From the NCBI GenBank assembly GCA_964354495.1, contig CAYHAA010000007.1, positions 75,759 through 107,758 of the forward strand: a stretch of 32,000 bases of DNA. The letters run 5' to 3'. Below the pieces are notes generated by a model. It was not told the origin of the DNA. It worked only from the letters and a program-made list of their open reading frames with translations, and did no database searches. Every line of letters starts with the position of its first letter. Position 1 is the first letter of the stretch. Position numbers and translations under genes: made by a program. Below are positions 4,452-16,981 of the stretch, one piece after another. The DNA is from an uncultured archaeon (GTDB lineage Archaea > Asgardarchaeota > Thorarchaeia > Thorarchaeales > Thorarchaeaceae).

Positions 4452-5501
4452 TTACATTGGTGTGCCTTTCCAGAATTCCTTCCTTCTGAGGTATTTGGAA
4501 AGGTATACCAACCCAAGCATAACCGGCACTTCCCAGAAAAGGCCCATTGTTGTTCCAAGAGCCGCGATGGATCCGACACCATACATCGAGATTGCTGTAG
4601 CAATGGCGATTTCAAAGTGACTAGAAGACCCAATGATCACAGTAATCGTTGCCTCTCTATAGGCGAGTCTTGCCAATCGAGTTATCAAAAGGCCATAGCT
4701 GACAGTTATCACAAAATGGAGCAATAGCGGAATTGAAACAAGTCCGAGCAGATCTGGATGTTCCAGCATTACAACGCCGTTCAGCGAGAAGAGCACAACT
4801 AACGTAGTCAGTAGAGCAACTAGGGCCAGTTTACCAACTGCTGGCTGATACTTCGTCGTGAACCAATCTTTTCCCTTCCAGTTCACAAGTGTCTTCCTTG
4901 TTACCAATCCAAGAAGCATTGGGGCACCAATAAAGAATGTTACAGAGATGACTAATAGCACGCGGTTAATAGGAATGTTGGAAATTCCAGTGAGTATTGC
5001 TACTACGGGTGCATAGAGCACTAGAATCGTTGCCGTGTTTAGAGTTGTGTTCACAATATTCTGTTCTTGGTTTCCCTCAGCGAGATATCCCCAGACCAGC
5101 ACCATTGCTGTACAGGGACTGGACGCAAGCAATATCACAGCTACAATCAACTGCTCATTGCCTGCCAGAAAGGTCCGAGCAAGTAGATATCCAACAATTG
5201 GTGCTACTATCCAATTCGATACGAGTGTGATTATTATTGGTTTAGGATTTCTTCTGAGTTTTCTTAATTCAGATCCTTGAATATTAAGCATGGCTGGATA
5301 CATCATCAAGAATAGACATATCCCGATTGGGACAGATATGCCGGCAATCTGCCATGAGTCTATAGCTTCACCAATCCCGGGCACTACTTGGGACAGGAAT
5401 ATTCCCAACACCATGCAAATGCCAATCCACAGTGGCAAGTACTTCTCAAATGTACTGAGCTTCTTCCCGCTTGCTACTTGATTTGGTTGGCTAGTTGACA
5501 A
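4452..5501 (-). CDS. acr3: ACR3-family arsenite efflux transporter
   Basis: FEKYLPLWI, LMMYPAM, NWIVAP, SPCTAMVLVW (conserved Cys), SSHFEIAIATA and EVPVMLGLV motifs; about 10 TM helices. Confidence 0.96.
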   Translation of the reverse strand: MSTSQPNQVASGKKLSTFEKYLPLWIGICMVLGIFLSQVVPGIGEAIDSWQIAGISVPIGICLFLMMYPAMLNIQGSELRKLRRNPKPIIITLVSNWIVAPIVGYLLARTFLAGNEQLIVAVILLASSPCTAMVLVWGYLAEGNQEQNIVNTTLNTATILVLYAPVVAILTGISNIPINRVLLVISVTFFIGAPMLLGLVTRKTLVNWKGKDWFTTKYQPAVGKLALVALLTTLVVLFSLNGVVMLEHPDLLGLVSIPLLLHFVITVSYGLLITRLARLAYREATITVIIGSSSHFEIAIATAISMYGVGSIAALGTTMGLFWEVPVMLGLVYLSKYLRRKEFWKGTPM

Positions 5502-5576: not shown

Positions 5577-5596
5577 ATATCGGATAATCTCGATAT
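5577..5596. promoter_or_regulatory. Inverted repeat ATATCG-N8-CGATAT, putative ArsR operator upstream of acr3
   Basis: aaATATCGgataatctCGATATtt, overlapping a minus-strand TATA-like TTAAATA. The same architecture recurs at 6222-6241. Confidence 0.7.
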
Positions 5597-6221: not shown

Positions 6222-6241
6222 ATATCGAAATAATCCGATAT
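6222..6241. promoter_or_regulatory. Inverted repeat ATATCG-N8-CGATAT, putative ArsR operator upstream of the HdrA-N/ferredoxin/DGC-GcvH operon
   Basis: tATATCGaaataatcCGATATtt, 20 bp before the ATG at 6261. Confidence 0.7.
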
Positions 6242-6260: not shown

Positions 6261-6638
6261 ATGAGTTCTGAAAAACCTGCCTTCATAATGTGTGTATGCA
6301 CAGGCAAATGTCCGGGCTTTGCGAAGATGGACATCTGGGATTTTATCAACACGGTTAGAATGACTCTTCCTGTTAAGTATGGAGTCATTCATCCACAACT
6401 CTGTGAACGCGATGGTGATGCCTACCTTGAGAATACCCTGACACCTGGAGAAAAAGTGTTCGTTGCTGGCTGTGCTCCTGCAATGCAATACAAGCTCTTC
6501 CGTGATTCATTCGCAAAGAAGGGACTCGACGTGAAGAAGGATCTTGTACCTATTGACGTGCGTGACATGACCACTGATGAGGCAGTAGAGAAGGTTTCAC
6601 AGGAGTTGAAAAAGCATGGATATGATGTCGAAGGATGA
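6261..6638 (+). CDS. Stand-alone heterodisulfide reductase subunit A N-terminal-like domain protein
   Basis: FIMCVCTGKC...QLCE...VFVAGCAP..LFR...GL...IDVRD parallels the HdrA N-terminal pattern (VxxCxC, MCS, VVAACSP, TFR, ANIRE). ATG 6261 preferred over TTG 6246. Confidence 0.72.
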   Translation: MSSEKPAFIMCVCTGKCPGFAKMDIWDFINTVRMTLPVKYGVIHPQLCERDGDAYLENTLTPGEKVFVAGCAPAMQYKLFRDSFAKKGLDVKKDLVPIDVRDMTTDEAVEKVSQELKKHGYDVEG

Positions 6639-6930
6639 GTCGAAGCCCAGTACAACTTTCATGGGCGTCAGTCGAGAGAAAATACCATGGTGGCCAATCG
6701 TAGACCTAGGGAAATGCGATGGCTGCAATGGTGAGTACGACTGCCTGAAGTTCTGTCCTCATAGAGTCTACAAGCCGCTTGAGGACTCCTCCAGAATCGA
6801 GGTTGAGAACCCATACAACTGCGTGGTCTTTTGCACAGCCTGTAGTAAGATGTGTCCTAGGGATGCAATCTCCTTTCCTGCAAAAGCGAACATCCTGAAG
6901 ATCATCAAAGAAGAACGTGCCAACAAATGA
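6616..6930 (+). CDS. 2x[4Fe-4S] ferredoxin-family protein
   Basis: CDGCNGEYDCLKFCP and CVVFCTACSKMCP; overlaps both neighbours (translational coupling). Confidence 0.88.
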   Translation: MDMMSKDESKPSTTFMGVSREKIPWWPIVDLGKCDGCNGEYDCLKFCPHRVYKPLEDSSRIEVENPYNCVVFCTACSKMCPRDAISFPAKANILKIIKEERANK

Positions 6931-7778
6931 GGTCGATGCGAGTGGTGAAGAAATACATTCTACCCTGTGCAGGCTATGACCGTCCGGGTGGAGAGGTTTC
7001 TAGGGCTGTTGCAGAGCAACTAGCTAGGAATCGTGACGATGTTGTAATTGGAAGCATGGGCGCGCTATACAAGGAACGTCCCGGTGAGATGCGTGACTTC
7101 AGGGCCTCAGAGGTGATTTGCCTCGATGGTTGTGGAACACACTGTGCCTCGGAACTTGCGATTGCACGGGGACGGAATGATGGAGCAGTTGTTTCTATTC
7201 CTGAGGCTGCAGGTTCAGGTGACGATTTTGAACAAAAGGTCCGCCATGTTATCGACGCCATGTCAAAGCATCTAGAAAAGAGAAAGGCGAAGGCCTCGCC
7301 CTCAACCAAAGAGATCTCCTCATTCTCTCTCGAATATCTTGAGGAAAAATTCGACAAGTTCACGCTTAGAGTCGCCAAAGGTATGTTGTACTCCGATAAC
7401 GACTTCTGGGTCAGGATTGAAGGCGACAATGTCCGGATTGGTGCTTCAGATTTTCTTCAGCAGATGATATCTGATGTATATTATGTGAATCTCGTCGAGC
7501 CCGGCCATCATGTCGATATGTTTGATGACGCAGGGAAGATGGAGTCGACGAAGATCTTAGTGGAGATAATCGTCCCCCTGACTGGAACCATAATCGAAGT
7601 CAACAGCTCATTGGAGAATAGTCCAGAACTGATTAACGAGAGCCCATATGATAAGGGATGGTTCTACGTCATAAGACCGGACGACATTGACGAACTGGAA
7701 CTGCTCAGGGATGCATCAAGCTATTTGCTTTACGCCTTGGCAAAGGCAAAAGAAGAGATTGGAAAGAAGGTGGAATAG
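6927..7778 (+). CDS. Fusion of a DGC putative Zn-binding domain (N-term) and a glycine cleavage H-protein-like lipoyl carrier (C-term)
   Basis: N-term PCAG...LDGCGTHCA. C-term DFWVRIEGDNVRIGASDFLQ...MESTK(209)ILVEIIVPLTGTIIEVNSSLENSPELINESPYDKGWF, which retains the lipoyl Lys (AAG at 7551-7553). Confidence 0.9.
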   Translation: MRSMRVVKKYILPCAGYDRPGGEVSRAVAEQLARNRDDVVIGSMGALYKERPGEMRDFRASEVICLDGCGTHCASELAIARGRNDGAVVSIPEAAGSGDDFEQKVRHVIDAMSKHLEKRKAKASPSTKEISSFSLEYLEEKFDKFTLRVAKGMLYSDNDFWVRIEGDNVRIGASDFLQQMISDVYYVNLVEPGHHVDMFDDAGKMESTKILVEIIVPLTGTIIEVNSSLENSPELINESPYDKGWFYVIRPDDIDELELLRDASSYLLYALAKAKEEIGKKVE

Positions 7779-7781
7779 AGA

Positions 7782-8165
7782 TTGAAGAAAGTAGTCATTC
7801 CATGTAGTGGAATGGGAAAAGCATTGGGAGCTGTCACACGTGAGACTATCCCACTCTTGCCAGACTCCAAGAGTCCCCATGAGTATAGGACAGTCTGTCT
7901 GCCATTGCTGATGACCGATGATGATGAGTCAAAACGAATAGTGCTAGAATCAGCTGTCTATACGATCGATGGCTGTCCAAAGAAGTGTGCGTCAACTGTA
8001 GTCAAACATGTTGGAGCAACGCCAGTCATGGAGATACTAGCGGCGAGAGTTCTTGCAGAGCATAGAGAGCACAAACCCGAAACTGTACTTGACGTCGGAG
8101 ATGGTGGACGCCTTCTTGCGAAAGATATCGTTGAGATAATCGCGAACGATGGAGGGACAGATTGA
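7782..8165 (+). CDS. DGC-domain putative Zn-binding protein
   Basis: PCSG...VCLPLL...IDGCPKKCA, all four conserved Cys present. Confidence 0.85.
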   Translation: MKKVVIPCSGMGKALGAVTRETIPLLPDSKSPHEYRTVCLPLLMTDDDESKRIVLESAVYTIDGCPKKCASTVVKHVGATPVMEILAARVLAEHREHKPETVLDVGDGGRLLAKDIVEIIANDGGTD

Positions 8166-8569
8166 TGACATTCAAACCGAAGGTTGGTCTAATCTCGTGT
8201 AGTGGTGAAGCATGTCCTGGAGGGAGAATCTCACGTGCTGCAACACTTGAGGTCCTTCATCACCTGAAACCAACTGACACAGTCACGATATGTCTCCCAC
8301 TATTCCTTGCCGGAGATGAGGGAGAGCGCGGATTTGCAAGCGTCTTTCCAACTATCACGGTGGATGGGTGCAGTAAACTCTGCGCAGCAAAGGGCACAGC
8401 CAAATATAGTAGCGAGCCTGCTGTGAGAATAAACATCGAGGACTATACAGGTGAGGGATGTACAAGTACTGATGAAGAGATGCGGACACAGAGTGACAAC
8501 AATCTGATCAAGAGAGTCGCCCAAGACTTGGCAGCTCATGTCGATCATCTTCGACAAGAGTGGGAGTGA
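8162..8569 (+). CDS. DGC-domain putative Zn-binding protein
   Basis: SCSGEACPGG...ICLPLF...VDGCSKLCA; overlaps the previous stop. Confidence 0.87.
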   Translation: MMTFKPKVGLISCSGEACPGGRISRAATLEVLHHLKPTDTVTICLPLFLAGDEGERGFASVFPTITVDGCSKLCAAKGTAKYSSEPAVRINIEDYTGEGCTSTDEEMRTQSDNNLIKRVAQDLAAHVDHLRQEWE

Positions 8570-8578
8570 TCCAGTGTC

Positions 8579-9771
8579 TTGAAGGGTAAACTTCAAACAC
8601 GCGCGCTCGATTCAGCTATCTCTAGCTTCGATATCACGCTCCTGAGCCGACTAATCAGAGATGCGGCGACAAGCGGTCATATTCGTGATACATGTGACTA
8701 CCTGCATATCGCCATGGGAAGTGCACATTCCATTAGCTCTGGAGTCTTGCGAGTAGCTGTCGTTTCGGCGTTTGAAATGTATGACTTCAAAGTTCTTGAT
8801 GTTGATCCTCTTGAGATTCTCTCTGGACTTCAGGACCTTGAACCCCAGGACATGATAGAATCTGCACGAAGAGCAATCATGTCTGCACTTGAGTTTCAAG
8901 TCCATAGGAGAAACACATTCTTTCTTGCAGTGGACAGGCTCCACAGTTCTGAAGCCGCAGTCCTTGTCAAGGATATCATCAACGCCCGGAGAACTGAGTT
9001 GGAGGAGCTCTGTCACAGCAGTCCAACTCTAGAGCAACTCGCTGCCACTTACTATGGTTTTCAGTTTCTGACCTCTCAAATCAGAAGATCGGAGCTTGGT
9101 GAAGACACTCAGAAGTTATTCGAATGCCTTGAACTCGATACCGCTCAGGATGTCAAAGTACCCTCGAATGCATTGAAACCCGAGGCGGTCGTATTTCGAA
9201 ATGTATCCGCGCAGACAGATGAGCTTCTCAGAAACACTCTCTATCTGACTGGGTATGACTCGGGCGAGCGGGCAAAGTCGGCTGCCTGTCTTGGAGAGCT
9301 GGCTGATCCCAGAGCTGGACTTTACCTCTCAAAGGCGACGAGGGATGAGTACTCATGGGTCCGGAAGGCTGCTGTGTCTGCTCTTGGGCGAATAAGGTTC
9401 CTCGAAGACCCCGGGTGTGTTGTTGATGTCTTGAAGGATCTTGACGAAGGAACCAGAAATGCGGCATTGGAAAGCGTCTGTTCCGTGGGACCCAGGCTGT
9501 TCCTCTACTCCTCAATACTCTAGAGAATTACAGGGGCATCTCCTATCCTGAAGCGATTGAGGCAGCCAAGAAGGCTCACCCGCGAGCCTTGGACAATCTC
9601 GAGGCAGTATTGCAGTATCACTCTCGTACAGCCAGAGCCTTGGCCGCAAACGCACTAGGTAGAATCGGTGACAAGAGAGCCATCTCAGCACTTGAGAGAG
9701 CTATGCAGGATGAAGAATTCGAAGTGAGATCTGCAGCACAAGACGCGCTCATTGAAATGAAAAGACTGTGA
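8579..9771 (+). pseudogene. HEAT (PBS-lyase-like) repeat protein split by one frameshift near 9470-9480 (ORFs 8579-9523 and 9589-9771)
   Basis: The first frame has HEAT repeats up to DEGTRNAALES. The -1 frame is open from 9445 and continues RLFRGTQAVPLLLNTLE...RALAANALGRIGDKRAISALERAMQDEEFEVRSAAQDAL. GGAGTGA RBS precedes TTG 8579. Confidence 0.75.
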
Positions 9772-9882: not shown

Positions 9883-10647
9883 TCAGATGATTCTCATCAA
9901 AATCATGACCGCAATCACCCACACTACAATGCCGAGCCCGGCCTTAATCTTTTGAGCTTGTATCCTCATGCTGGTTCTCGCCCCGAGATTCCCACCGATG
10001 AGGACGACAATGCCAGTCACCAAAATCAAGGGAATATCGAAAGCATGAAATGCCGCATGGCCAAGTAGACCGGAGAATGCTGAGAAGGATACAATCGCAT
10101 GCGACGATCCTGCCGCGAACTTTGTAGGGTACTTGCAGATATAGATCAGGAATGGAACGATTAGCACTCCGCCGCCAATTCCTAGCAAGCCCGATATGAG
10201 TCCTACACCGAAACTGAATAGCACGATGAGTGGGTACATGGTAGTGACCACGCGTTTTGGAAATTCATCCTCAATCTTTCCCCGTTCCCAAAACGTATAG
10301 ACCATCCTCCCTCCGAGACCAGCCAAGAAGAACACAAACAACCACAACAAGAAGGTTTCATCAACAAATACAACTAAGGCTCCGCCCATAAAAGCGCCCA
10401 GGCAGACACCAGGTATGAATAGGAAGGACGTCCTCAAGTCTATCATCTTCTTGCGATACAAGACGTAACCCGCAGACAGCGATGTTATTAGAGTCAACAC
10501 TAAGGATGTGGATGTGGAAATCGATACCGCATAGCCAAGTAGAATCAACAGCGGGGAGTACATCGACCCTCCGCCCTGACCAAACATCGAGAACACAAAA
10601 GCTATCAGAAAGACAAAGATGGTAGTGTATAGAAGTACAATATCCAT
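9883..10647 (-). CDS. Sulfite exporter TauE/SafE family membrane protein
   Basis: Two repeats of the GxGGG signature (FGQGGGSMYSPLL; LGIGGGVLIVPFL), AAGSS and about 8 TM helices. ATG 10647 or GTG 10659. Confidence 0.9.
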   Translation of the reverse strand: MDIVLLYTTIFVFLIAFVFSMFGQGGGSMYSPLLILLGYAVSISTSTSLVLTLITSLSAGYVLYRKKMIDLRTSFLFIPGVCLGAFMGGALVVFVDETFLLWLFVFFLAGLGGRMVYTFWERGKIEDEFPKRVVTTMYPLIVLFSFGVGLISGLLGIGGGVLIVPFLIYICKYPTKFAAGSSHAIVSFSAFSGLLGHAAFHAFDIPLILVTGIVVLIGGNLGARTSMRIQAQKIKAGLGIVVWVIAVMILMRII

Positions 10648-10746
10648 ATTGATGCACACCCGAGGGTTTTCGGCAAACTGGACTGAGCTGGTTGGTCAAT
10701 CAGTGGAAACGCTGCCCTTTGGGATTCGAAGGGTTCCAGCATGACG

Positions 10747-15121: not shown

Positions 15122-16981
15122 TCACTCGAGCCCAAGACGCTCAAGAGTCTCTTGCAGGGGCAGACCGGTGACTAGGTTCCACCCTCTCACCGAGTAGTAT
15201 TCATCAAGCATCTGGTCGAGTTCTACGACTTCACCAGCGGACGGTCCAAGTGGCGCTTTCTCCTTCGTCAGACGCTCGGGTAAGCAGTCATCTTTGCGCG
15301 TTACGCCGAATCGTGCATTGAACAGACGATTGAGATTGACGATGCGCTCACCTATCTCCTGTAGATCTGCGGCCGTGAGGTTCAGTCCGTTATGCACCTT
15401 GAGAGCAAGAGCCACATCATCATAGTAAAACTCAGGCGGTATCTGGGTCCCATACTTGCAGAGACCGACACTCTCTATCATGACCATAAAGTCCTCGCAC
15501 TCTTTCACCATGATTCCTTTGTACTTTGGATTCAGTCTATCTGCCATCTCTGGTAAGTACTTCTCTCCAAACCGTTTCTTGATGTCCTCATCGAATCCAA
15601 CCTCATCGAGGACTGGGAATCCATAGAGATGGTCTGCACCTCTCGCAGCAGTCGCTGCGGCAAGTCCCATAGACTTCTGCGCTCTGGGCTCTTGACCTGC
15701 AATCTCCTGATTCTTGACCGTCATGACAAACTTGTCCGTACCACGACCAATCCTCTGAGCTGCACGTGCGCTACCCTCTGCGAGTATGTTTCCGAATCCT
15801 TCTCTAAAGGCAATCATCTTAGTCAGCTTAATGAGACTCTCATCATTGCCCCAACTCAGGTCGATTCCGCCAGTATCCTCTGCTGTGAGTAGACCCTCAT
15901 CCCAGGCCTCCATCGCCCATGAGATAGTCCCACCCAAGGATATGGTGTCCAATCCATACTGGTTGGCAAGATGATGTCCAAATAGGACCGCCTCTAGGTT
16001 ATCGATCCCGCATCGCGAGCCCATAGCCGCTTGGGTCTCGAACTCAGGTGCCCCTCCCTCATAGGAGTAGGGCCCGCTTCTCACAGCGGTATATCTTCCG
16101 CACCTCTGGAGGCAAGACCAATCAGCTCTCGCCTTGACAAGATACTTCTCATTGATAGCATCCCCACCAATCTTCTCGTAGCCATCAAAGACACCCTGGC
16201 GCATGTTGTAGCTTGGGAGTCTTCCAATGTGCTGCATTAGTTCAACAAGACTCGTTGTACCGTATTTCACACGCCCCGGTGTGAATCTGTTTGACATCAT
16301 TCTCCGATAGAACTCGTCCATCTGTTTGAGATAATTCTTGGAATCTGCAACCTCAATCTTGCCCGTACCCTTCACGGAGATTGCCTTCAGTTTCTTTGAG
16401 CCCATCACAGCTCCGAGGCCTGACCGAGCAGACGCACGGTCCCTGTCATTCATGATGGCTGCAAAACGTACCAGATTCTCTCCTGCCTGCCCAATCGAGA
16501 GCACTCTGCATTTCCTGCCATGTTTCTTCCGGATCATGCTGTCAGTTTCGAAGACATCCTTCCCCCAGAGCTGAGAGGCATCTAGGAGCTCGACCATTGA
16601 GTCTTCGATATGAAGGTAGACAGGCGTTGACGAAGACCCTGTGAACATGATGGCATCATAGCCTGCAAGCTTCAGTTCTGGTCCCCAGAATCCTGCTGCG
16701 TGACTCTCTCCCCAGATATTTGTCAGAGGTGATAGTGCAGCAATGACATGTCTCGAGGACTGCGGGAACATAGATCCAGTGAGCAGGCCGGTGGCAAATC
16801 CGAGAACATTGTCTTTTCCTAGTGGATCTGTTCCTCCTGGAATCATGTCATAGAGGACCCTCGAGAGATACCCAGCTCCCAGGAGGTACTTGCGGACTAG
16901 CTTCTTGTCAATGGGCTCTTTCTTGATGCTCCCCGTTGTCAGGTCAACCCAGATGATCTCCCCGCCCATGCCGAACATCAA
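15122..16981 (-). CDS. aor: Aldehyde:ferredoxin oxidoreductase family (W/Mo-pterin) enzyme, paralog 1
   Basis: GPELKLAGYDAI, RSGLGAVMGSKKLKA, PEFET, YGLDTISLG, RGADHL and GLCKY. The Fe-S motif reads DWSCLQRC. Confidence 0.95.
   Translation of the reverse strand: MMFGMGGEIIWVDLTTGSIKKEPIDKKLVRKYLLGAGYLSRVLYDMIPGGTDPLGKDNVLGFATGLLTGSMFPQSSRHVIAALSPLTNIWGESHAAGFWGPELKLAGYDAIMFTGSSSTPVYLHIEDSMVELLDASQLWGKDVFETDSMIRKKHGRKCRVLSIGQAGENLVRFAAIMNDRDRASARSGLGAVMGSKKLKAISVKGTGKIEVADSKNYLKQMDEFYRRMMSNRFTPGRVKYGTTSLVELMQHIGRLPSYNMRQGVFDGYEKIGGDAINEKYLVKARADWSCLQRCGRYTAVRSGPYSYEGGAPEFETQAAMGSRCGIDNLEAVLFGHHLANQYGLDTISLGGTISWAMEAWDEGLLTAEDTGGIDLSWGNDESLIKLTKMIAFREGFGNILAEGSARAAQRIGRGTDKFVMTVKNQEIAGQEPRAQKSMGLAAATAARGADHLYGFPVLDEVGFDEDIKKRFGEKYLPEMADRLNPKYKGIMVKECEDFMVMIESVGLCKYGTQIPPEFYYDDVALALKVHNGLNLTAADLQEIGERIVNLNRLFNARFGVTRKDDCLPERLTKEKAPLGPSAGEVVELDQMLDEYYSVRGWNLVTGLPLQETLERLGLE

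Follow-up and report, generated by a model that had tools for sequence, protein, structure and literature searches.

A DGC-GcvH fusion protein in a conserved, arsenic-linked five-gene cassette of Asgard archaea and Bacteria: a candidate lipoyl carrier of a thiol relay

Introduction

Carriers resembling the H-protein of glycine cleavage have been put to non-canonical uses in the sHdr-LbpA system and in the Lpd-DlaT-AhpD-AhpC relay of Mycobacterium tuberculosis, a lipoyl-dependent peroxidase. In their dihydrolipoyl form, lipoyl groups are also textbook targets of arsenite poisoning. Arsenic resistance (ars) operons, for their part, can include genes of the DGC family, a family for which zinc binding is an inference given in the Pfam family description (PF08859); for instance, the ArsR5-ArsP-ArsE operon of Pseudodesulfovibrio mercurii contains a DGC gene, mentioned with no function assigned to it (bioRxiv 10.1101/2022.10.17.512643). 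This article deals with a locus in which these elements meet. The window, a 32,000-nt stretch of contig CAYHAA010000007.1 from an uncultured archaeon of the Thorarchaeaceae (Asgardarchaeota), encodes a protein, P0001, in which a DGC domain is fused to a GcvH-type lipoyl domain, and the fusion gene is the third of a compact cassette of five genes that diverges from an arsR-acr3 arm.

Homologous cassettes recur in Asgard archaea and in at least six bacterial phyla, most often close to ars genes. Since neither the fusion nor the five-gene cassette had a describing paper in the searchable literature, the cassette is apparently undescribed. On the evidence set out below, we propose, with a probability of roughly 0.55, that the fusion acts as a subunit with a swinging lipoyl arm in a thiol relay that is fed by ferredoxin (in some Bacillota by the dihydrolipoyl dehydrogenase Lpd) and serves arsenic detoxification.

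Architecture and Recurrence of the DGC-GcvH Fusion

The fusion is encoded by one open reading frame (ORF) with zero internal stops (Table 1), in which both domains exceed their Pfam cut-offs: PF08859 (DGC) scores 37.5 bits versus a cut-off of 27, with profile positions 2-69 of 106 covered, and PF01597 (GCV_H) scores 100.1 bits versus 22.2, with an expectation (E) value of 1e-28. Confidence in the AlphaFold model of the protein (117 relatives), expressed as the predicted local distance difference test (pLDDT), singles out residues 120-133 as the only disordered stretch besides the first four residues. They lie in the linker, of which about 15 residues are disordered and which differs in length and sequence among relatives. 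The predicted template-modelling score (pTM) of the whole fusion is 0.57, and the arrangement of the two domains is not fixed in the model. A preliminary description, made from the letters of this DNA alone, had read the gene as an in-frame DGC-GcvH fusion through a linker and had stated that the GcvH half keeps the motifs MESTK and PYDKGW. The single frame, the two Pfam matches and the position of the linker bear out the former statement, and the latter is equally correct: PYDKGW occupies residues 240-245, and MESTK contains K209, the lipoyl lysine of the hairpin motif E-S-x-K (E206-S207-T208-K209). K209 is invariant across 117 full-length fusions, as are C14, C69, C73, E206, W161 and W245, while S207 is kept in 113. 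In Foldseek comparisons, the GcvH half superimposes on the H-proteins 1htp and 1onl with template-modelling (TM) scores of 0.94-0.95 and a root-mean-square deviation of 0.8-1.1 Å.

The DGC half, modelled alone, is a three-layer alpha/beta domain of good predicted quality (pLDDT 89.6, pTM 0.83). In alpha/beta folds of such type, ligand sites form at strand ends. In the model, C14 lies just past strand 1 and S43 just past strand 2, strand 3 is followed by a loop that contains C69, and C73 starts the next helix. A sequence-profile search found no solved structure for the DGC domain, and searches with its fold returned generic alpha/beta matches, headed by an uncharacterised Wolinella protein (Z 8.9) and followed by a sugar isomerase, low-molecular-weight protein tyrosine phosphatases (LMW-PTPs) and HybD-like folds (Z about 7). 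The same half retrieved only DGC clusters from the ESM Atlas, with scores of 0.84-0.85. The possibility that the DGC domain is a disguised LMW-PTP or ArsC was considered and found little support: the fold likeness is only generic, with LMW-PTPs at Z 6.3-7.2 among many alpha/beta folds, hhalign gives the DGC profile a probability of 0.2 against the genome's own LMWP protein, and the DGC loop reads C-x-G-x-D-(K/R), not the C-X5-R P-loop of the LMW-PTP-type ArsC.

A domain-architecture search for DGC plus GCV_H established that the fusion is real. About 100 protein clusters, named Thorarchaeota or Sifarchaeia where named, share both Pfam domains and the same length at 46-95% identity, and a search of 1.84 billion representatives added about 30 more distant full-length fusions, bacterial and archaeal, at 27-37% identity. 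Since more than 100 independent contigs, drawn from several sources, carry the fusion, an assembly artefact is ruled out. In a phylum sample of 300 genomes, close copies are restricted to the window's own family, where they are patchy (about 6 of the 24 genomes of its genus), and six further Asgard families have full-length fusions of 28-36% identity. In the window's family, some genomes also encode a second, highly divergent fusion paralogue of about 35% identity (G176:C222:510-1307 and G245:C631:1141-1938; P0102), whose loop reads GSIC, that is, Ser followed by Cys two residues on.

The two halves also occur apart. The nearest free GcvH-like proteins are about 158 aa long and are named Bathyarchaeia where named; on metagenome contigs, two DGC genes come directly after the GcvH-like one, with ArsR and ACR3 genes ahead of it in one locus. 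That the DGC and lipoyl parts are fused in one lineage and adjacent in another is a classic indication that they cooperate.

Conservation and Loss of the DGC Cysteines

The fused DGC domain retains the core of the family motif, with G68 invariant alongside C69 and residue 67 being Asp in 101 of the 117 fusions and Asn in the others. At the second cysteine position it reads GS (S43), where the free-standing paralogs encoded by genes 4 and 5 of the cassette read CLP. The preliminary description had noted that three of the four cysteines are kept, which is confirmed for C14, C69 and C73 with Ser in place of the second, and had seen in the missing one a possible open coordination site for a lipoyl thiol or metalloid. 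As a whole, its interpretation is supported in part. On the one hand, the loss is not random: residue 43 is Ser in 105 of the 117 fusions and Cys in 12, and it is Ser in every Thor-type sequence. On the other hand, it is lineage-specific: four cysteines are the widespread state, shared by every bacterial fusion and by most Asgard fusions outside the Thor type, which read ICPV at the second cysteine; moreover, an additional cysteine of the Thor-type proteins, Cys65, had been overlooked.

In a tree of 101 fusions, on which the state of the second cysteine was assigned by motif, the Thor-type sequences form one strongly supported clade with a long stem, all carrying Ser, and Ser is found again in a second clade of nine (PS type) and in a separate pair. 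Judging from this tree, Cys was replaced at least three times, always by Ser, and the three-cysteine state is a fixed, derived feature of the Thor clade. Random loss of the cysteine was accordingly rejected, the replacement being always Ser and fixed by clade. The free DGC paralogs keep all four cysteines wherever the column is covered (88-89 of 89 for gene 4 and 73-74 of 74 for gene 5), so that the second cysteine is dispensable only in a DGC domain that has a lipoyl domain in cis. As far as sequences can tell, then, the exchange of Cys for Ser is recurrent and confined to lipoyl-tethered DGC domains. Such a restriction is what would be predicted if a lipoyl thiol stood in for the lost cysteine; it is equally consistent with a thiol-disulfide cascade that has lost a resolving cysteine. 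A DGC site left open and filled by a lipoyl thiol or by As(III) is a possibility that fits the cysteine patterns.

Cys65 precedes C69 by four residues, falls inside strand 3 of the model and occurs in 87 of about 95 Thor-type sequences (87 of the 117 fusions). About eight Thor-type members have Ser, Val or Ala instead, so that Cys65 cannot be a strictly required ligand; the residue is hydrophobic in the other clades. Cys65 as a strict replacement for the lost cysteine is thus not supported, and the alignment argues for a frequent, non-essential gain that might refill the site. By the same comparison, the Thorarchaeota fusion is a derived variant, with Ser for the second Cys and usually the extra Cys65.

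The Five-Gene Cassette

The cassette comprises, in order, genes for a five-cysteine protein (gene 1), a dicluster ferredoxin (gene 2), the DGC-GcvH fusion and two free-standing DGC proteins (genes 4 and 5), the fusion being always third. The start codon of the fusion overlaps the stop codon of the ferredoxin gene (ATGA), the next gene begins 3 nt past the fusion stop and the following one overlaps it by 4 nt; more generally, the genes of this region overlap or sit 3-10 nt apart, and such tight spacing points to operon packing. All three DGC domains of this genome, which is 97.7% complete, sit in this one operon.

The five genes keep this order in each of the 20 Asgard loci compared, which have fusions of 26-70% identity. 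Scanning the alignment of gene 1 against one genome per prokaryotic species yielded 343 confirmed stretches, so that the cassette has at least 343 occurrences among the species representatives of several phyla, with many anaerobes among the carriers. The best 80 of these loci were examined: all that were long enough to judge keep the five-gene order including the fusion, and 49 are bacterial, from at least six phyla (Acidobacteriota, Actinomycetota, Bacteroidota, Armatimonadota, Bacillota and Planctomycetota), although the division into archaeal and bacterial loci is slightly blurred by two doubtful bins. A locus binned as Nanopelagicaceae (L128) carries a Loki-type cassette near-identical to that of a Promethearchaeota contig (L134), and one binned as Alphaproteobacteria (L119) matches a Bacteroidales locus (L108); both are probably binning errors rather than recent transfers. 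In the loci examined, the fusion never occurs outside the five-gene cassette.

Gene 1 is strikingly conserved, with a mean identity of 70% across Asgard archaea, 60-72% in bacteria and 60-85% across both domains of life. Its product forms more than 1200 clusters, has no Pfam family and is called "hypothetical protein" at NCBI; it matches positions 4-90 of the NCBIfam HdrA model (E 0.006), that is, the HdrA N-terminus. A sequence search of the PDB returned only chance matches to it, and a search of a plasmid collection returned none. The ferredoxin gene adjoins gene 1 in all loci. As for gene 5, an extra cysteine (C18) is present in 48 of 74 orthologues.

Two neighbours show how the cassette is extended locally. 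A small protein with a CSC motif, which gave no Pfam, NCBIfam or PDB match, is encoded on the divergent arm behind acr3 in the window; in most Thor-type loci its gene, located with tblastn, directly follows the fifth cassette gene, which makes a six-gene unit of those loci. No such gene was found beside bacterial cassettes with the window's protein as query. The HEAT-repeat gene that follows the cassette in the window has homologues near cassettes only in the Thor loci L048, L077 and L079, and is a local addition outside the conserved core. A separate 60-aa HEAT-repeat ORF at 9589-9771 comes after it, and the two ORFs may be separate genes or parts of a single gene interrupted by a frameshift or stop.

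Arsenic-Related Gene Context

In the window, the cassette diverges from an arm that encodes an ArsR-family repressor and an ACR3-type arsenite efflux permease, and the two arms share a palindromic operator. The sequence ATATCG-N8-CGATAT is found in exactly two copies in the 32 kb (0 expected from 100 shuffles), one directly upstream of gene 1 and one upstream of acr3. In seven orthologous loci, gene 1 is likewise immediately preceded by a similar palindrome, and ACR3 genes have such a site upstream in L045, L047 and L052. Neighbours were counted within the fetched flanks of 88 non-redundant loci, 39 archaeal and 49 bacterial. ArsR genes are close to the cassette in 25 archaeal and 44 bacterial loci, with a CxC pair in all 25 of the archaeal repressors, ACR3 genes in 22 and 16, and any ars-type gene in 30 and 46, respectively.

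Low-molecular-weight (LMWP) ArsC, ACR3, ArsF, ArsE-like and ArsP proteins are recurrent neighbours, and an Acidobacteriota locus has LMWP ArsC, ACR3 and ArsR together beside the cassette. About half of the bacterial loci have ArsF and ArsE-like genes flanking the cassette; in 24-26 of the 49, the genes immediately upstream code for a membrane thiol transporter (DsbD_2) and a protein of the ArsF family (NF040494). In a metagenome-assembled genome of the Bacillota (Dehalobacterium, L112), the cassette is directly preceded by a gene for a true dihydrolipoyl dehydrogenase (L112:4499-5917; TIGR01350, 508 bits versus 409) and directly followed by one for an AhpD-like CMD protein (L112:8837-9160), and a homologue of the dehydrogenase is also encoded at a Desulfofundulus locus (L124). 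The presence of this enzyme beside the cassette points to lipoyl redox cycling.

Elsewhere in the window, an aldehyde:ferredoxin oxidoreductase gene (AFOR_N, AFOR_C) with its neighbours, at 15122-16981 and beyond, forms a separate cluster unrelated to the fusion.

Table 1. Coordinates of the fusion gene, its parts and the surrounding features in the window
Feature	Position	Strand	Basis or remark
DGC-GcvH fusion protein P0001 (gene 3), 283 aa	6927..7778	+	ORF, Pfam DGC + GCV_H; AlphaFold mean pLDDT 86
DGC domain core, residues 11-79	6957..7163	+	Pfam PF08859
Codon of C14	6966-6968	+	
Codon of S43 (Cys2 position)	7053-7055	+	
Codon of C65	7119-7121	+	
Codon of C69	7131-7133	+	
Codon of C73	7143-7145	+	
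Flexible inter-domain linker, about residues 118-135	7278..7331	+	Residues 120-133 with pLDDT <50
GcvH-type lipoyl domain, residues 154-266	7386..7724	+	Pfam PF01597
Codon of lipoyl lysine K209	7551-7553	+	
Gene 1, 125 aa, five invariant Cys (CVCTGKC, HPQLC, AGCAP)	6261..6638	+	Start ATG 6261 matches orthologues (ORF list: TTG 6246)
Gene 2, 2x[4Fe-4S]-type ferredoxin, 104 aa	6616..6930	+	Pfam Fer4 families; NCBIfam HgcB/AprB-like matches
Gene 4, free-standing DGC, four Cys	7782..8165	+	Pfam DGC 46 bits
Gene 5, free-standing DGC, four Cys and frequent fifth (CSGEAC)	8162..8569	+	Pfam DGC 54 bits
Palindromic operator ATATCG-N8-CGATAT, upstream of gene 1	6222..6241	.	
Second operator copy, upstream of acr3	5577..5596	.	
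ArsR-family repressor, CxC pair (RCQCE) in presumed alpha-3 helix	5686..5982	-	Pfam HTH_5 47 bits
ACR3-type arsenite efflux permease	4452..5501	-	Pfam SBF 141 bits
Small CSC-motif protein, 93 aa	4142..4423	-	Sequence; behind acr3 on divergent arm
HEAT-repeat protein, 314 aa, 10 nt past cassette	8579..9523	+	Pfam HEAT_2
TauE/SafE-type exporter, converging on operon end	9883..10659	-	

Proposed Role and Alternative Explanations

In the thiol relay proposed above, K209 would be lipoylated, and low-potential electrons would enter through the ferredoxin and the five-cysteine protein, or could be supplied instead by the dihydrolipoyl dehydrogenase at the two Bacillota loci. As a dithiol/disulfide shuttle, the lipoyl arm would swing from one DGC cysteine centre to another, and either the reducing power or the dithiol itself would serve arsenic detoxification. 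Possible roles are the feeding of the ArsE/ArsF thiol pathway in bacteria, the reduction of arsenicals, and the holding of As(III) for ACR3.

Several points speak against this proposal. Lipoylation of K209 is assumed. LplA-like genes are present, yet no canonical lipA (TIGR00510) was found in the genome, by a search that did not cover the archaeal two-protein synthase; lipoylation may rely on salvage or on such a synthase. As modelled, the DGC domain resembles only generic alpha/beta folds, and its site may hold Zn, an iron-sulfur (Fe-S) cluster, a metalloid or nothing, while gene 1 bears only a weak likeness to the HdrA N-terminus. About a quarter of the archaeal loci are without an ars neighbour in the fetched flanks, and other metals and persulfides are also among the signals of ArsR-family regulators. 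Arsenate reduction could be accounted for without the cassette, since a separate candidate for an LMWP-type ArsC is present in the genome. Finally, the TauE sulfite-exporter-type gene that converges on the operon could hint at a link to sulfur or thioarsenate.

The strong Pfam match, the almost identical fold and the names of relatives at JGI and NCBI ("glycine cleavage system H protein") would suit an ordinary glycine-cleavage H-protein carrying a structural zinc domain. However, contig 3 of the genome carries a canonical gcvH side by side with gcvT, and contig 21 carries gcvP; the fusion has no such linkage and lies only in the cassette. It also falls under both GcvH equivalog cut-offs (TIGR00527, 101.6 versus 115.85 bits; NF002270, 105.9 versus 117 bits), and the HE of the HEW/HEY motif is replaced by DF, the canonical protein reading EHEY and the fusion NDFW, with F, C or V at position 160 across the fusion family. 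According to work on the pea H-protein, the Glu of this motif reportedly holds the aminomethyl-lipoyl intermediate. Given in addition the patchy distribution within the genus and the strict confinement to the cassette, a housekeeping role is highly improbable. The genome also has a third GcvH-family gene (L002:1357-1887, contig 1), whose 176-aa product is extended by 48 residues at the N-terminus; it is a solitary gene, flanked by one for a Rad51-like protein and one for an AAA ATPase. A role in sulfur or persulfide handling, with an sHdr-LbpA-like carrier system, a persulfide-sensing ArsR-family regulator and sulfite export via TauE, would account for the GcvH-like carrier beside an Hdr-like Fe-S piece and for the convergent TauE gene, which has counterparts near the cassette in L065, L106 and L113; some ArsR-family proteins do sense persulfides. 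But neither an HdrB/HdrC CCG-domain gene nor a full-length HdrA, DsrE or TusA was found in the window, the operator is common to the cassette and acr3, ars genes are the recurrent neighbours and TauE is rare (about 4 of 100 loci), all of which make this explanation unlikely.

A metalloid chaperone or sponge, which gives concrete form to the open site of the preliminary description, has better prospects, while still being clearly less probable than the relay. The three-cysteine DGC site, alone or with the dihydrolipoyl thiols of K209, would bind As(III) or Sb(III), which would be sequestered or passed to ACR3, as from ArsD to ArsA, with no net electron transfer needed. As(III) favours three thiolate ligands and binds dihydrolipoyl groups avidly, the fused DGC has exactly three invariant cysteines, with the fourth lost to Ser repeatedly and only where a lipoyl domain is tethered, and ACR3 and a CxC-bearing ArsR are associated with the cassette. 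Pure binding, however, would leave unexplained the two Fe-S-type proteins, which are the most conserved members of the cassette (60-85% identity across domains); besides, the widespread fusion has four cysteines, and the adjacent dihydrolipoyl dehydrogenase of two loci points to redox turnover. A further, less probable idea is that a thiol of the tethered dihydrolipoyl-lysine replaces the second cysteine and completes a metal, Fe-S or As(III) site in cis; in wider terms, the cassette would be a previously unknown lipoate-based arsenic-resistance arm across Bacteria and Archaea. It would explain the three or more cysteine losses, their constant outcome and their restriction to lipoyl-tethered domains and, if true, would make a protein-bound lipoyl group a direct ligand or resolving thiol, beyond a diffusing dithiol.

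A lipoyl carrier set aside for this purpose and controlled by an arsenic repressor would show the classic target of arsenic turned to the defence of the cell. Resolving the cassette would add a third non-canonical use of H-protein-like carriers to those of sHdr-LbpA and of the DlaT-AhpD relay, and would give a function to the DGC family and to the highly conserved "hypothetical" Fe-S protein encoded by gene 1, and the natural Cys/Ser variants of the fused DGC domain provide a ready-made experiment on the role of the cysteine centre.

Comparison with Known Systems

With the H-protein itself, the lipoyl half of the fusion has in common the fold (TM 0.95), the lipoyl-lysine hairpin motif and a conserved PY-x-x-GW; it differs by an N-terminal DKF extension and a C-terminal helix on the lipoyl domain, by the fused DGC domain and by DF for HE. 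The likeness to sHdr-LbpA extends to genetic organization, as both are GcvH-like lipoyl carriers outside glycine cleavage, encoded with Hdr-related Fe-S proteins, and paralogues of a housekeeping H-protein. In contrast to sHdr systems, Pfam and NCBIfam scans of the operon and flanking ORFs found no CCG-domain protein, no full-length flavin-containing HdrA and no DsrE or TusA; furthermore, the carrier of the cassette is fused to a DGC domain, two more DGC proteins are encoded alongside, and the context is one of ars genes, not of sulfur oxidation. The divergent arsR-acr3 arm and the common operator place the locus close to ars operons, in which DGC genes are already known, although no described ars gene encoding a lipoyl carrier was found in the literature searched.

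The mycobacterial relay offers a parallel for the proposed chemistry. There, a protein-bound lipoyl group is a dithiol shuttle to a small cysteine protein in stress defence, as is proposed for the cassette, and the Dehalobacterium locus even has Lpd before and an AhpD-like protein after the cassette, with an Lpd homologue in the Desulfofundulus locus as well. Most cassette loci, including that of the window, differ in being without an adjacent Lpd, the likely electron source being the ferredoxin and the Fe-S protein, and whereas the mycobacterial carrier works with AhpD, the partners of the lipoyl arm in the cassette would be DGC domains, under regulation by ArsR.

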